Assembly: GCA_964016885.1 (NCBI GenBank) | Contig: OZ024740.1 | Coordinates: forward strand, 44,020,001-44,084,000 | Direction of reading: 5' to 3' | DNA from: Eledone cirrhosa | Lineage: Eukaryota | DNA: 64,000 nt | Translations under genes and position numbers: made by a program | The notes under the pieces: model-generated | What the model was told of the DNA's origin: nothing | The model's input: the letters and a program-made list of their open reading frames with translations, nothing else | Databases searched by the model: none | Shown here: piece by piece, positions 4,204 to 59,900 of the stretch | Numbering within the stretch: position 1 is the first letter of the stretch | How the letters are laid out: every line of letters starts with the position of its first letter

Positions 4204-4648
4204 CGATATATTAACAAATGGAAACTATATTTATAAAACCATATTTATTTCATTATACATATTTCAAGGACACCAAGTCAAATTATGGTGCGCTTTCATC
4301 AGATAAAATATAATATAGATCACTTTTATAAATAAATATTGACATACTCTTAAAGAATGCGACCATTTCTGTTGGAAGCTCGCGGACTTCCAACAGAAAT
4401 GGTCGCATTCTTTAAGAGTATGTCAATATTTATTTATAAAAGTGATCTATATTATATTTTATCTGATGAAAGCGCACCATAATTTGACTTGGTGTCCTTG
4501 AAATATGTATAATGAAATAAATATGGTTTTATAAATATAGTTTCCATTTGTTAATATATCGTATTTTTACTCCAATAATTTGTTGAGTGCTTTATATCAG
4601 TTATAAAAATATTTGCTTGTTGTATCCCAACAAATTAAATATAACTTC

Positions 4649-14189: not shown

Positions 14190-17100
14190 TAAAATAACAG
14201 ATTAAAATTTAAGCAAAGAATCGCTGCTTTCACCCTTAACGGGATCTTCTGAAACTAACAAAGTCAATCAGTAAACGCTGAAGTGGATATTTCAAAAAAC
14301 GTTGCAACCGGAGGAAGACAGGAAGACGATACTTTGGTTCGTGGAAACGTTCGCTGGCAAAGAACGGGAAAAAACGAATATAATACGTCATTATTTGGAG
14401 CAGTGAAAAACAATTACACGCAAAGACAGAACCACGTTTAAGGTATAAAAGAAGTCGTAGACTATGTTCTCTTAGGTGGTTCATAGAGACGTTCTCTGGC
14501 AATGAACGAAAAAAACCGAAGATAGTACGTCATATGTGGAGCGTGGAGAACAAAACCACGTAAATGGTATAGCAGAAGTCGTAGACTAAAATTCTAACTA
14601 GGAGACCAAATGAATCTCCGCTACAGAGTTAAGAACAAAGTAAATAAATACAATACAGAGGTAATAGAAATTAAATAAAAACATACACGCATACAAATAC
14701 GTACATACACAAGCATATGCGAAAACACTTACCATAGGTATATAAAACCACGCACATATAAATATGTGTGTGTGTGTATGCGTGTATACAAATAAATAAA
14801 TAATTAAATAAACGTATATAAATAAATAAATACGTATATAACAAGCACACACACATACCTACATGTAAATCCACAAATGTTCGGAGACGTAAGTCAACCA
14901 AAACATGAAGTACACATATACACACACACACATACATACGAACCTGCATACTCACACAGACGCAAAACTCCCGTATACACATAACCAAACCATATGTACC
15001 AGAATATATAAAATTATACGCCATAACATATACAATCAAATATACGTACGAGAATGTATACGTACCTTCACAAAACATAGAGGTAATATATACTTTCCTA
15101 TGCAAATAAGTAATGGTATAAACAAAACATATACTTAGCTACCACATCAAGACGTAAAATATCCACGTATAGATCGTACTATCCGTTAGGGTATAACGAG
15201 GGTCTGTAATACAGGAAAGTTTTGTGCAATTTATGTTTACAAGCCGAAATTGCCTCAGATTTTTTGTTTAAGATGTGGTCTGTGGCGTAGAGTATTTCCA
15301 GGGCCTCAGCGGCGCAGAGGTCACATGGTCTTTTATTTCGGTTATATGATCTAGCCCTAGCTAGGATTTCCCAGTGTAAATTATATTGGGTGTGGTTGTC
15401 TTTTAGACTCCAGATATAAGCTGAAAGTGACGTCATATTCCTTCTTAAAGGGTAACGAAAAGAATGGGCATGCATGTAAAGACGCTGCTTGAATCTATTG
15501 GCGGTTAACCCTATGTAGGCCCTACGGGACGTGAGTGTTTCAACCTTGCATTTGTAGATAATGTTACTAGAGAGGCATTTCTCGGATAGGGGGCAATCAG
15601 CAATTACAGTTAGTACTAACAATTACAGTTAGTACTAACAATTACAGTTAGTACTAACTACAGGGTTGCACGTGTTCCTACGGCTAGGTAGTTTAGCTAA
15701 ATTTGAAGCTGTGATGTTATGTGCAAGGTTAGGAGTCGTAGAGTAAGAAATTTTAATAGTATTTCTATTAAAAAATTTACTATATTTATGCTTCGTAATA
15801 AGGGGAAGAAAGATCTTAGTTAATGGTGTGGCCACCTCCATATTATATGGTGGGTTATACCAACAAATGCGACGGGATCTATTACTTCTATGTCTATTTT
15901 CGTACTCTGTATATGCTACCTTATCGATGAATCCACTCCGAGCAAGAGCTTCATTGTAATAAGTGGAATAGTCGTTGAAAATATGCTCGTTAGTAGATAG
16001 ACGGGAAAGCCTCAACGAAACGTTCCTTACCAGGTTCTTGGTTATGCTGGCAGGATGGTTGGAATGCTTACTTATGTAATTAAGCGTATCATTCGGCTTT
16101 CTATACGGGTAATACAACCCATAAATTGAGGGTAACGTCGAGGTAATTAACGACCGAGAGATTGGCCTCAACCTGTATAGAGACGTTGAAGCCTTTAAAG
16201 AAGGCTGTGAGTTCTTTTCTGAACCTGTCGCAAGCACGAGGTCCACACTTAGTCATGGTCAAAAGACCATCATTACGGTACAAACCACCGCCTGCGTTGG
16301 GGAATTCGTCCTTGATAGAGAAAAGAAGGAAAAGGCCGATAAGATCAGTAACCTCCGCAGAGTCGCTGGCGCCCATACTCACGTCGAATGGGGTACTATT
16401 GGATGTCTTAATCCAAATAGAGTCGTCGAAATTAATCACCGACTTACGGGCATTGAGGATGACATCAACTTCGAAATCCTTAACCACTGTGAGTGTTTTA
16501 GCGAAATTGAGAGCTCTAAGGAGAAGTGGTAAAATGATGGAGGAGTAGTAAATGTTGATGACGAATTGGATAAAACGGCAATGTTCCTTGTTACATATGC
16601 CGTTGAACCAATCAATCACCGCGAAAGAATTGTTCCACAGTGCAAGAGGGGCCAAACTTCTAATTTCAGGTATAATTCTATCAAGAATCGTTTTACTAAG
16701 TCTACCTAAATCGGACTTCGTAGGGTTAATAAGCCGAATAGGGGCTTGTTTGGAAAATTGGATTTGTGATCCTTCAGGGTAAAGTGGGGAGAAATAGGGT
16801 CCAGAGGTTCGGTCCAGTCCAGGATGTTGAGATCAGATGTGATTTTAAACCCAGCATCGTTGATTTCATTGATGACGCACCGATTAGTTTTACGGTAATC
16901 CTTAGTTACAGCATTATGTAGTAGTTGATGGTAAGTACTGCGCTCCACTTGATATAGGTTGCCAGTTTTGTTGGAATGGACGTGCACGGCATTAGAATCC
17001 TTAATAGAACGAATTCTATTCTTCAGGTCCTGCTGTAAGGAATTGCTCCTATTCCGAAATTTGATACTCTGTATGAGTTCCAAGACATCATTTTCGAAGG

Positions 17101-17345
17101 GTAGCAATGCTGGGTTACACGGGGGGTTATTATAGGTTTTAAACCCAAATTTATCCCGTTTGTTGTCAGCTTTCCGCGGATTATCGAAATAAAAGGCACG
17201 CCAACGCAACCTTTCAATGAACGCGTCTGTTTTCTGTATCAAGAGTTTTAGGTATGTTTTCCTGCTTGGTACGGGTATGTTCTTTGTAGAAATATTCAAA
17301 TGTTGTTTCTGCATGATGAATATAAGTCAATAGAATGCTCAACCG
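14186..17345 (-). mobile_element. Near full-length PLE, Naiad-like (RT plus C-terminal GIY-YIG), frameshifted
   Basis: STKNIPVP, KDHK, RLINPTKSDLG, FDVSMGASDSAEVTDLIG, LYRNDGL, YRKPND, CNC..CPL..CL..IIYKC, YIGLT..FKQR..H; hammerhead with U4A change at 14206-14256. Confidence 0.92.
15601..15657. repeat. 19-bp tandem triplication disrupting the RT-EN linker
   Basis: caattacagttagtactaa x3. Confidence 0.9.
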
Positions 17346-24571: not shown

Positions 24572-28254
<3,683 letters not shown>

Positions 28255-29074
28255 TACACACATACTTATATATATACATATGTACGAGTGGGTTATATCG
28301 AATATTGATAATAACGTTCGATTCATTTCTAAACAAACGAGCCCTATTACGAGGAGCTGTGCCGTTTGTTCAACACTGGATTTAAGGAACAATCACCGTG
28401 TTTCTGGGTCATTACCGTTCATCATTGGCAGAGAAGTATACATTCCAGATAACATTTACGTACATGAACGTGCGGTTTGGGGTTTCAGAGAGTTAGCGGT
28501 TTTTTGTTGCGTCAATGCTAGTTTCATGTCTGCAGTTAACCTGGTTAAATTATCTGATGCCTCCGACCGCAAAAATGGTGAATGCTACGCAGGCACGCAG
28601 GCACGCACACACCCCAATAAATGAAGATGGTAATTCCATTCAATTTCTCTTTGACAATTCTTCAACTCAGCCAAATCTTCACTCATCACTACTATACCAG
28701 AGTTTTTCTTACTCCTCCCCACATAAGTAATAAAATATACACACACATAAACAGACGCACGCGTGCGCAGTCACACACCCACAAACACAACGACACTCGG
28801 AAAATACATACAAAAATATATTAAAATAATAAATAAAATATAATTTATTTTCAAACATTTTTTAACAACCTACAAATAATCTTTATATATGTATGGGCTT
28901 ATATACTTACATGCTTAAACCCCTATATAGACAGTGCATCATTGTACCGACACGTAAATCACCTAAATCACGCTTCCGACAAGATGGCAAGTTCACTGCA
29001 AGTAGTTTTATCAACAGTCTGGAATTAGATCTCGAAACGGCAAGAGCTCAGCCGTCGGGCCTCGACATTTTGCA

Positions 29075-29134
<60 letters not shown>

Positions 29135-29141
<7 letters not shown>

Positions 29142-30643
29142 CAAATAACGAAACGAAATTAAATTTCGTTTCGTTTGTAACTCACTTTTGTATGACTGAC
29201 GCTTAAACAATTAAGTTAAAAATGTACATCTACATATGCATACTGAAATACTAGTGTGTATATGAATACACACACGTATACATATGTAGGTGTACCAAGT
29301 CTTTCACTGGTCGCTTTACAGTGAGCGGCCCAGCTATTCTGTATATAAACACACAGACAAACCGGTTTTTAGAGTCATACTGGTTTTTCGGGGGAACACC
29401 TTCCCCCTATTCTCCAGAAAGCCAGACAAGGAACATTGAACTAGTTTCGTTGTTGTTACAACTCATCAGCAATATTTACCTATCTACCGGCCTTTCTGGA
29501 GAATTGTAAAAGCACATATCGTTATATGCTTTTTCTATGAAAATTAGTAGTGGGCAGACTAATTTGCATAGAGTGTGAGTACGCACCGGTTCAGCGGAGA
29601 CGATAAAAACAAATAACGAAACGAAATTAAATTTCGTTTCGTTTGTAACTCACTTTTGTATGACTGACGCTTAAACAATTAAGTTAAAAATGTACATCTA
29701 CATATGCATACTGAAATACTAGTGTGTATATGAATACACACACGTATACATATGTAGGTGTACCAAGTCTTTCACTGGTCGCTTTACAGTGAGCGGCCCA
29801 GCTATTCTGTATGTAAACACACAGACAAACCGGTTTTTAGAGTCATACTGGTTTTTCGGGGGAACACCTTCCCCCTATTCTCCAGAAAGCCAGACAAGGA
29901 ACATTGAACTAGTTTCGTTGTTGTTACAACTCATCAGCAATATTTACCTATCTACCGGCCTTTCTGGAGAATTGTAAAAGCACATATCGTTATATGCTTT
30001 TTCTATGAAAATTAGTAGTGGGAAAACTAATTTGCATAGAGTGTGAGTACGCACCGGTTCAGCGGAGACGATAAAAACAAATAACGAAACGAAATTAAAT
30101 TTCGTTTCGTTTGTAACTCACTTTTGTATGACTGACGCTTAAACAATTAAGTTAAAAATGTACATTTTTAACTTAATTGTTTAAGCGTCAGTCATACAAA
30201 AGTGAGTTACAAACGAAACGAAATTTAATTTCGTTTCGTTATTTGTTTTTATCGTCTCCGCTGAACCGGTGCGTACTCACACTCTATGCAAATTAGTCTG
30301 CCCACTACTAATTTTCATAGAAAAAGCATATAACGATATGTGCTTTTACAATTCTCCAGAAAGGCCGGTAGATAGGTAAATATTGGTGATGAGTTGTAAC
30401 AACAACGAAACTAGTTCAATGTTCCTTGTCTGGCTTTCTGGAGAATAGGGGGAAGGTGTTCCCCCGAAAAACCAGTATGACTCTAAAAACCGGTTTGTCT
30501 GTGTGTTTACATACAGAATAGCTGGGCCGCTCACTGTAAAGCGACCAGTGAAAGACTTGGTACACCTACATATGTATACGTGTGTGTATTCATATACACA
30601 CTAGTATTTCAGTATGCATATGTAGATGTACATTTTTAACTTA

Positions 30644-30648
<5 letters not shown>
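29135..30648. mobile_element. Retrozyme-like array: ~2.2 tandem 468-bp units plus one inverted unit, one hammerhead per unit
   Basis: Period 468 (29321/29789); minus-strand auauug CUGAUGA guug..caac GAAA cuag UU caaugu at 29433-29475 and 29901-29943; zero-spacer palindrome centred at 30161/30162. Confidence 0.92.
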
Positions 30649-30700
<52 letters not shown>

Positions 30701-56944: not shown

Positions 56945-59900
56945 AAGATTCTTTCAGTAGAAAATGTTCAAGAGATTTTTTCAGTGAGATATCAAAACAT
57001 AAATTCATTTGCAATACCGGTTTCAGTATTATATGCATTGTCAATTGCGTATATGTAGAATATTGTTAAGCTGCATATTTGTACAAATAGTGATAATAAT
57101 AACAATGAAAATAAAAAGGGGAAGAAAAATTAATTTTCACATACATGTTCATTCAGAGAAGAGAGTTCATTGCTCTGTCCATCCTTCTCTGCTTATAGCT
57201 TGGTTGTGACCGGTAGTAGGAGAGGGTAGAGGAAGGGGGGAATAATAATAATAAGGAGGAGGAGGAGGAGGAGGAGGAGGAGGAGGAGGAGGAGGAGGAG
57301 GAGGAAAGGGATAGTTGCGTTGGCAGACTGCTGTGAGAGTCCCTTTGAGGAGTGGATACAAGTTCCAGCTGGGATTGGTTTGAAAGGCCGGGTGATCAGT
57401 CCTTATGGAGGGAGAATATTATACAACCTTAGTACTCTCATCTTTAGAAGACGAAACATACTACGAAAGGGCTCAACACTACAGCCAACAGAAAATAATG
57501 AGAAACCTAAAAACAACCCTTTACAGAGGACTTACCGACAAGGGATACAAGTATATCACTGACTTCAAAAGCAAACCCAGCCTTTTCTACGGTATCCCTA
57601 AGATACATAAATGCGAAAAAATAAGTAAGGAAGCTACAAACATATTCATCAATGTCCCCCTCACCCAATGACCTCAAATTAAGACCTATAATAGCAGGTA
57701 CGGTTTATGAAACCCACCGCCTCAGCAACTTCCTAGATATCCTGTTAAACCCATTCCTGAAACGCATTGAAAGCTACATAAGGGATGACCTTGATATGCT
57801 CAACCACCTCCCCAAAACACTTAATAATGAACATACCCTACTAGTGTCTTTTGATGTAGTCAACCTTTATTCCAATATCCCACACAACCTAGGAATAGAG
57901 ACAATCCAATCCTGGTTAGAAAATTACCTCAATGAACTACCACACCGCATCATAAAAGAATTCGCAATAGAAGGGCTCAAATTTATCTTGGAGAATAACT
58001 ACTCCGAATTCGATGCCAAATCCTACAGACAGAAATCCGGGACTGCCATGGACACGAAAACGGCCCCCTCTTACGCCAACCTTGTTATGGGATACTTGGA
58101 AATCACCCTCTACCGAAAAGTACTAGATAAATACGGAAAGCCCTTCTACCTCCAGATAGAAAAAAAAATGGAAGAGATATGTGGATGATTTCTTCATCCT
58201 CTGGCATGAAAGTATTAGAAAGACATTGAATTTAAAACATTTCTTAATTGACTCAACACAAACATTCAATTTACAATGGAATGAACAACTTCCTTTCCTC
58301 GACATCCTTATCAAGAAATCCAACAACAAAATAGAAACAGACTTATACTATAAACCCACAGACTCCAAACAGTATCTTCCATTCAACTTATGCCACCTTA
58401 GACACACCAAAATGAGTATTCCTTACAACCTAGCCAAAAAGATCTGCACAATAGTATCTGATAAATACACATGCTACATACGACTAGAAGAAATAAAGAT
58501 TATTAGCAGGAATTACCCACAATCCCTAATCAACAATGGATTCCAACGTGCCCTAAAGCTCAACATCCAGGAACTTAGACACCCTAAACCGAGGAAAGAA
58601 TCAAACTGAAAACTATACCTTACATCTCCTCACACAACCCCCTTAACAATGAAGGACTCGACACCACCCTCCAGAACATACCCTTACTAAAAAGAGACCT
58701 AAGAATGAATCAAATCCTCCAAACACACAATATCATAAAGAGCAAAAGACAACCCAAATCAATAAAAAAACATCCTTACAATGGCCAAAGTCCAGCCGAC
58801 CCTCACAATGAGCCCTACAGTAAAAAAAATGCGGAAGACCCAACTGTAGTATATGTACCAATCTAATAGAGGGATCGGAGTTCCACTTCAAACAAGGACA
58901 ACACTTTACAGTTAAACACAATTTCACATGTGCATCAGCAAACCTGATCTATGTGTTGACCTGCTCAGGTTGTCGAGAACACTACATAGGACAGACCAAA
59001 AACAGCCTCCGACAACGTATGACGGTCCATAGTTCCCAAATCAAAATATGGGAATACAGAAAGACAGCACTGAGTGAACACATCGTGACCTGCGCTTTTA
59101 ATGAACAACCCAATCTTAGAATTTTTCCCATCTACAAATTTAAAGACAACGCTTCCTACATCCAGCGCATTAGCAAGGAATCACAATTTATCGCCAAATA
59201 CTAAACCATTCTAAATGCTTCCACTTCGAACTAAACTAAAGCTGGTACACTTTAAAATTAACACCCTAGACAACTTAACCCTTTAGCAATGTATCCTTCT
59301 CCAAGATTCCAGCAACCTCTGGCAACTATATAATGCAGACCATGCAACCACATATAAACACCTACATCAGCTAGCCCTGGGGGACTTCCCCGAAGATAAT
59401 CGGATAAATGGAAGCATTCAGGTGTCAAACTAAATGCTTTACATTCCTCTGAATCTGGAAGTTTCTGCTGAAGATAGAATGGGCATTCCAGTGGCTCTGA
59501 ACCCCTTTTAGTGACATATTTTCTCTATTCCCCAAAATCTGAAATTTCGGCTAGGGGTAGAATTAGCATCTCAATAACTCGTAATCTTCTTTGTGGCCAA
59601 AAAATCCAAGGTTAATGTTGATTTTTTCCAAGAGAAAATACCAAGATAGATATTTCTAGAAGCAATCACCCCCCCCCCCCCCCACCCCATCCCGGTCAAC
59701 TCTAAGGTCACCCGGCTTTTCAAACCAATCCCAGCTGGAACTTGTATCCACTCCTCAAAGGGACTTTCACAGCAGTCTGCCAACGCAACTATCCCCTGCA
59801 TCATCATCCTCCTTATTCTCCTTTACCCCCTTCCTCTACCCGCTCATACTACCAGTCACAACCAAGCTATAAGCAGAGAAGGATGGACAGAGCAATGAAC

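Follow-up and report, generated by a model that had tools for sequence, protein, structure and literature searches.

Two described systems come closest to the locus analysed here, the non-LTR retrozymes of animals and the Penelope-like elements (PLEs), and both are summarized from the accessible text of the sources cited. Animal non-LTR retrozymes were defined in PMC7229834, where RNA circles were shown and a circular template and a PLE helper were proposed; circles have also been proposed for PLEs (PMC4209133), and retrozymes have been linked to pLTRs (10.64898/2026.07.22.740005). PLEs form partial tandems with an inverted 5'-truncated copy and a tail at one end, and they use microsatellite targets (PMC8557442); in vitro, a PLE protein cuts and extends both strands, and two internal starts bound the tail (PMC11167929). 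How the tandem and inverted ends of PLEs are formed, and whether the circles of retrozymes template insertions, are open questions in this literature (PMC8557442, PMC7229834, 10.64898/2026.07.22.740005). The family described below has inserted thousands of times very recently, its two ends are strictly paired, its haplotypes can be scored, and the genome that carries it also encodes an intact candidate enzyme; both questions thereby become testable by genome statistics and an established in vitro assay.

The locus, situated near the middle of the window (the whole stretch of 64,000 nucleotides that was analysed), represents a single insertion of a hammerhead repeat that is young, dispersed and non-coding, and it shows the "tandem + inverted + tail" footprint known from Penelope. 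Like the animal non-LTR retrozymes (PMC7229834; 10.64898/2026.07.22.740005), the family consists of non-coding tandems with one type I hammerhead per unit, has a GC content below 50% (here 38%), a strongly self-paired monomer, thousands of copies and target duplications of more than 4 bp (here ~9 bp), and co-exists with PLEs; its unit of 468 nt compares with ranges of 150-450 bp (PMC7229834) and 51-972 bp (10.64898/2026.07.22.740005). The accessible text of these sources mentions neither head-to-head arms nor two fixed ends nor TA targeting for retrozymes (the word "inverted" occurs 0 times in that of PMC7229834), and RNA and cleavage have been demonstrated in known retrozymes, whereas in the present family both are predictions. 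The family probably adds a new member to the animal retrozymes already described; neither paired fixed ends in retrozymes nor a cephalopod retrozyme was found in the literature searched, to which most subscription papers, Repbase and supplements did not belong.

With the EN+ PLEs (Neptune, Nematis, Naiad and Penelope/Poseidon; PMC8557442, PMC3846280) the family shares tandems, an inverted truncated arm, a tail at one end, microsatellite targets, target duplications (8-10 bp) and a hammerhead in the repeat; it differs from them in the absence of an ORF, a longer tail (~70 nt versus 30-40), a canonical instead of a minimal hammerhead and the presence of several whole units per arm. The Anolis Poseidon element PAc, studied in vitro (Frangieh et al. 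2024, PMC11167929), is similar in its two RT starts that bound the tail, its AT-rich targets and the cutting and extension of both strands. However, PAc is autonomous, its hammerhead is dispensable in vitro (hammerhead mutants were without effect on insertion), and its start sites are reported as non-homologous to the target, whereas the ends of the present family lie at TA-like words. The non-autonomous elements of Chlamys, e.g., MRC1 (PMC8557442), are comparable in that they derive from PLEs and insert as head-to-tail multimers; most of them lack hammerheads, and in their 3' sequence they match their autonomous partner, a similarity not found here with the one candidate PLE compared.

Tandem Repeats Finder reported a period of 468 with 2.2 copies and 99% matches at 29135-30165, and the inverted arm mirrors positions 29675-30161 with zero spacer, centred on ATGTACAT (Table 1). 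The near-identical 468-bp units, the inversion without spacer and with 487-bp arms at a self-complementary word, the single minus-strand hammerhead of each unit with its stem III ACUAGU, and the change of C3 to G in the inverted copy had all been proposed in the initial annotation and were recovered here. The arms differ from each other at three positions (29937/30386, 30023 and 30025), and private differences among the copies of the locus fall at four sites (29345, 30023, 30025 and 30386). The C3G allele at 30386 is carried by 1 of 205 aligned family pieces and is a private change, either a later or a copying mutation. The left end of unit 1 is the fixed end A of the family (unit position 1), which is its 3' end when read in the sense that carries the hammerhead, and a 13-bp hairpin is found inside the tail (29147-29175). 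The unit is non-coding (the longest ATG frame in the looped unit has 19-20 aa, and there is no ORF with RT plus GIY-YIG), it has no LTR, its ends abutting the TA runs directly, and its GC content is 0.378; the predicted fold of the monomer has -167 kcal/mol (z = -10 versus 100 shuffles). Contigs of run X2, a run of unknown kind in which strand, ends and level cannot be read, cover the unit and leave its unique flank uncovered; they carry no evidential weight.

Table 1. Positions of the features of the locus (numbering of the window).
Feature	Positions	Strand
Left (TA)n target microsatellite	29075..29137	.
Unit 1, 468 nt, private variant at 29345	29135..29602	-
"Tail" of ~70 nt between fixed ends A and B, outer end only	29135..29206	-
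Type I hammerhead 1, intact core	29416..29487	-
Predicted cleavage of hammerhead 1 (GUU), from the standard hammerhead layout	between 29439 and 29438	-
Predicted 468-nt cleavage-to-cleavage monomer RNA, candidate circle, non-coding	29439..29906	-
Unit 2, 468 nt, private changes at 30023 and 30025	29603..30070	-
Type I hammerhead 2 with intact core, cut predicted at 29907/29906	29884..29955	-
Partial unit 3 (91 bp), 5'-truncated end of arm A	30071..30161	-
Head-to-head junction (30161/30162), 8-nt self-complementary word (microhomology)	30158..30165	.
Inverted arm B, 487 nt; outer end is the family fixed end B (unit position ~73)	30162..30648	+
Hammerhead 3, C3G at 30386, predicted inactive	30368..30439	+
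Right (TA)n target microsatellite	30648..30697	.

The CUGAUGA cores on the minus strand begin at 29469 and 29937, and stem II has 4-5 bp. Helix I of 6 bp with a bulge, helix II of 4 bp, a palindromic helix III of 2 bp and a full core fit the published dimensions of the canonical type I hammerhead of metazoans (6 and 4 bp in helices I and II, and 1-2 bp closed by a small palindromic loop in helix III; PMC4209133), and the motif is therefore canonical type I rather than "minimal", the label under which it was first noted. At the gathering level, Rfam returned no match for the locus; below the cut-off of 52 bits, HH9 matched all three hammerheads over their full length (35 bits and E 1e-6 for the two intact copies, 31.3 bits for the C3G copy). 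Matches to miRNA families in Rfam were rejected as hairpin artefacts of the palindrome. Inherited alleles were present at 1 of 45 hammerhead positions versus 66 of 411 elsewhere (p 0.0075), the lone change keeping a pair, and unit-private changes fell in the hammerhead at the expected rate (17 of 192); by this comparison of alleles, the hammerhead appears to be under selection among inherited variants. Across seven variants, which are few and related, 6 of 15 pairs change on both sides and 96% of cells pair, a covariation of the hammerhead between families. For the two intact copies, the double-hammerhead fold was predicted to lie 2 kcal/mol over the free fold, whereas two single folds cost 15 kcal/mol, making the double fold 13 kcal/mol better. 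Hammerheads with GUU sites and a short stem III may cut slowly. The C3G change abolishes hammerhead cleavage (PMC11167929), and 8 of 9 predicted dimers showed no cleavage in 10.64898/2026.07.22.740005. A signal of strand-specific selection on the whole fold (pair-keeping 24:22 in inherited alleles versus 20:75 in private ones) was discarded because the antisense control shows a like trend (20:27 versus 14:74).

A search of the 3.0-Gb assembly with unit 1 gave 822 candidates, and the best 40 of these, when scored, contained at least 152 matches, full units being 98-100% identical. The exact 32-letter hammerhead pattern occurs 6,097 times in the genome and a relaxed pattern that admits sister families 38,952 times, both with 0 occurrences in both controls; most of the relaxed motifs appear to belong to sister families. 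The dispersed exact motifs and the near-identity of full units support the earlier view of a recent insertion and show the family to be dispersed. The first 100 exact motifs fall in ~30 loci, an extrapolation of which gives roughly 1,800 insertions of the family, and both orientations are present in 10 of these loci, all head-to-head. The set analysed further comprised 76 loci (84 fetched, 8 redundant ones dropped), the first 40 being the best matches to unit 1, and hence biased to its subfamily and to end A, and the other 36 having been found by a 45-letter hammerhead pattern. One sister family, identical in 306 of 503 aligned columns, has two fixed ends as here, ~59 nt apart. The sister families (L014:118-1051, L087, L088, L089 and L101) have units of 430-502 nt and are alike in the stem III palindrome and the two-end architecture.

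Two-armed clusters were counted 53 times in the 76 loci (52 are distinct, one being a local duplicate). With end A defined as unit position 1-5 and end B as unit position 67-76, 47 of the 53 clusters pair A with B, one pairs B with B, none pairs A with A and five have one end elsewhere; the A+B pairing holds for 46 of the 52 distinct clusters, and for 22 of 23 among the loci retrieved by their hammerhead pattern, a subset unselected on ends. The 27 one-armed clusters, some of which are fragments of interrupted insertions, end at A in 19 cases and at B in 7. In the only B+B insertion (L037:2840-6141) the units carry one extra base in the run beside site A. The outer ends are fixed, whereas the inner ends and the point of inversion vary; circularly permuted copies, which had been suggested as a test of the family, would mislead because the outer ends are fixed at two sites. 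Target duplications of ~9 bp were detected in 4 of 54 loci (L026, L027, L079 and L095), where the target is not pure TA, and in the remaining loci they are mostly masked by TA.

The junctions between the arms show microhomology of at least 2 nt in 20 of the 32 insert-free cases (17.5% expected, p 2e-8) and short inserted bases in 20 of 52. Same-position palindromes account for only ~3 of the 52 junctions, and the 487-bp palindrome is thus a special case. Its two arms end at the same 8-mer, a self-complementary word at unit positions 88-95 where a long hairpin has its base, and the palindrome is therefore perfect; inner ends pile up at this place in the family (11 of 131 in 15 bases, p 0.003, for an interval chosen post hoc). 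The perfect palindrome is incidental, and the locus is an ordinary member of its family.

Our main reading, to which we give a probability of roughly 0.65, is that a young protein-free retrozyme was written into a TA microsatellite by a PLE-type enzyme that primed both nicked strands on a probably circular 468-nt RNA. As to its parts, we have little doubt that the locus is a retrozyme mobilised by a PLE-type enzyme, and separate priming of the two target strands is quite likely. Evidence on the template comes from the haplotypes of the units: the mean distance is 0.007 within arms (313 pairs) and likewise 0.007 across arms (228), versus 0.0445 between loci (34,010). Fifteen locus-private alleles occupy every covering unit of both arms. 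L058 has 16 units (8+8) over both arms that are identical bar one homopolymer run, L083 has six identical units, and among locus-by-allele cases, counted for alleles that recur in several loci, 466 were uniform within the locus versus 83 mixed, most of the latter being single units (the count left out 7 poorly aligned pieces, one of which, in L027, is a real chimera). This homogeneity of the arrays favours a monomeric template, probably circular. Of the earlier proposal of a circular template, the monomeric part is favoured by arrays such as L058, and on the shape of that template a linear RNA remains a rival; on balance the circle is probable. The autonomous PLE of this genome also tends to carry one haplotype over both arms, so that this feature alone is no proof of a circle.

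That rival, twin priming on a linear template (either a multimeric transcript of a young, homogeneous array left uncleaved, or an RNA with terminal redundancy that is copied repeatedly through homology-guided jumps), we consider unlikely. In vitro, a PLE copied mainly uncleaved RNA (PMC11167929), the autonomous PLE gives the same two-arm footprint with units of 4 kb, and homology-guided jumps would be scarless; two chimeric arrays show that a second template or event can take part. The linear template is at odds with the fixation of new alleles on all units of an array, as in the uniform cases counted above, with the conservation of the hammerhead among inherited alleles, and with the expectation that 5' truncation should shorten arrays in each generation, yet arrays of 8+8 identical units exist. 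No inner ends were found at the predicted cleavage site (unit 300-308; 0 of 131 versus 2.5 expected, a weak result) and no indels occur there, which argues weakly against a cleaved linear template. In the two chimeras (L027:1501-2645 and L070:1895-8029), the haplotype of a unit or arm on the A side does not match that of the remaining array, a pattern suggestive of re-insertion at the end of an old copy or of the use of two templates; a further 6 loci of the 66 show differences at 2-3 lineage sites.

Less probable still is a fold-back, in which a single priming event is followed by a turn of the RT onto its new cDNA (by template switch or self-priming) and an endonuclease resolves the end at B. 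It would account for the single haplotype found on both arms, a published proposal attributes Penelope palindromes to self-priming (PMC3846280), and the studied locus is itself a perfect palindrome with a shorter second arm and with arm lengths that are compatible. Among the 46 A+B loci, this one included, 36 have compatible arm lengths (30 A-first and 6 B-first), whereas the other 10 fit neither direction of fold-back copying. The low frequency of same-position palindromes speaks against it, as do private alleles on only some units of both arms, which number 3 versus 227 singletons, and the inverted arm of the locus lacks the two private changes of unit 2 (these may be later). Fold-back is refuted as the sole mechanism, and the template switch that had been offered for the inversion does not hold as the general one, in view of the ~3 same-position junctions and the 10 impossible pairs of arm lengths. 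The inverted arm corresponds to the usual second, head-to-head arm of Penelope insertions, whose outer end is fixed.

Amplification as a satellite, i.e., of solo Penelope terminal repeats by unequal crossing-over, with the inversion produced by DNA repair, is very improbable as a whole. Local amplification has been suggested in 10.64898/2026.07.22.740005, and long arrays do share variants among subsets of units; variants common to unit subsets in a 31-unit array and in L070 indicate that long arrays are not all the product of one copying event and underwent later local turnover. The fixed paired ends at TA runs, the target duplications, the identical units across both arms and the wide dispersal refute it for the origin of the insertions, and it is left as a secondary process in long arrays. 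The 31-unit array (L085-L086; G000:C1:5738093-5752746) spans 14 kb and includes an inverted arm that is short; it shows signs of local turnover and carries a compensatory variant in stem II. Finally, although long-read sequencing artefacts include zero-spacer palindromes, a fold-back introduced by sequencing or assembly is very unlikely, because three positions differ between the arms and the junction is a different one in each of 51 further two-armed insertions; in addition, the outer end matches the fixed end B of the family and contigs of a public DNA run (whose sample may be the source of the assembly) show the TA junction of end B in family copies.

For the mobilisation of the retrozyme by a PLE-type enzyme, a candidate is available in the same genome. 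A young and abundant PLE has an intact, uninterrupted frame of ~1,200 aa, and 150 of 150 scored matches are 98-100% identical; the protein is a PLE candidate by its motifs and by weak similarity to a Pfam-positive RT/GIY-YIG frame (E 4e-9), searches of Pfam and of solved structures giving no name for it. Copies of this PLE (L153:2346-5996 on the minus strand, also L143-L156) have an Asn-rich insert, a C-terminal GIY-YIG-like domain and an atypical hammerhead-like motif. Its insertions in (TA)n are head-to-head, and wherever both ends could be read (10 of 10 loci) a short end is paired with a long one; ten of the loci examined had been picked for opposed frames, and one of these ten has a single readable end. 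Its short and long ends are 42-59 bases apart and lie ~256 and 313 bases behind the hammerhead-like motif, versus 265 and 334 in the retrozyme; its units are of 4 kb, and in 8 of 10 loci the own arm is closer than any other arm. Between the retrozyme unit and the terminal repeat of the PLE no significant DNA similarity was detected (33 and 23 of 300 shuffles score as high), none of 30 GIY-YIG loci had a hammerhead of the family type, and a five-monomer profile run over the collected loci yielded no ORF-linked relative among the matches listed. The intact PLE is put forward as a candidate helper only. Broken Penelope-like RT/GIY-YIG frames, recognized by motifs, are located near the locus at 15179-17326, 26510-28174 and 57625-59204 (all on the minus strand), with one weak RVT_1 match among them.

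According to the main reading of a retrozyme written from a probable circle, the tandem array would be transcribed from its minus strand, and neighbouring hammerheads would pair via their palindromic stem III and excise the 468-nt monomer, which a host ligase would close, as the predicted fold, the conservation of the hammerhead and the known retrozymes suggest. A PLE RT/GIY-YIG protein would then make a staggered double nick in (TA)n, ~9 bp apart; the target and its duplication are observed, and the enzyme is a presumed one. One 3' end would prime at site A and the other at site B, at the two observed ends ~70 nt apart. Each cDNA would be extended over a variable length, often more than one unit, in keeping with the arm lengths and the lack of a scar at the ribozyme site, and the cDNA ends would be joined head-to-head via microhomology or short inserted bases, as the junctions display. 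A more specific version, in which a dimer of the PLE RT/endonuclease sits on one ribozyme-made circle and both polymerases travel around it (a twin-primed rolling circle), is tentative. If it were true, the circle would be an obligatory intermediate, hence the selected hammerhead, and, given the same geometry in the autonomous element, the pseudo-LTRs, inverted ends and tails of Penelope would all be products of one mechanism.

Several minor observations concern the sequence of the unit. A>G and U>C make up 19 of 32 array-fixed alleles, versus 45 of 202 unit-private changes, a bias in the former. A-to-I editing was considered as their source and rejected, because the enrichment involves U>C (9 of 32) as well as A>G (10 of 32), i.e., there is no strand-specific signal of editing. 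An octamer-like word at 29561-29568 (minus strand) is common to the sister families and is changed in the L058 lineage. Newt satellite 2 has an snRNA-type promoter; the octamer-like word was dropped as a required promoter, since it is altered in the young L058 lineage although shared with a sister family. Runs X5 and X6, from two other organisms, contain, at low depth, sequences closely related to parts of the unit.

Other repeats with hammerhead-like motifs are present in the window. The end of another high-copy repeat adjoins the left TA run (29019-29070, plus strand) with an apparent 3' half of a different hammerhead. Further motifs of other families were located at 2317 (+), 19612 (-), 34166 (-) and 34848 (+), and head-to-head pairs of hammerhead-like motifs, belonging to different families, at 4302 (-)/4463 (+) and 11440 (-)/11554 (+). 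Elsewhere in the genome, family copies have themselves received later insertions, in one case at unit position 144-147, by a LINE-like element whose frame has 1,040 aa (L049:2748-7510), and in another at unit position 201-205, by an insert of 276 bp (L044:5094-5369).
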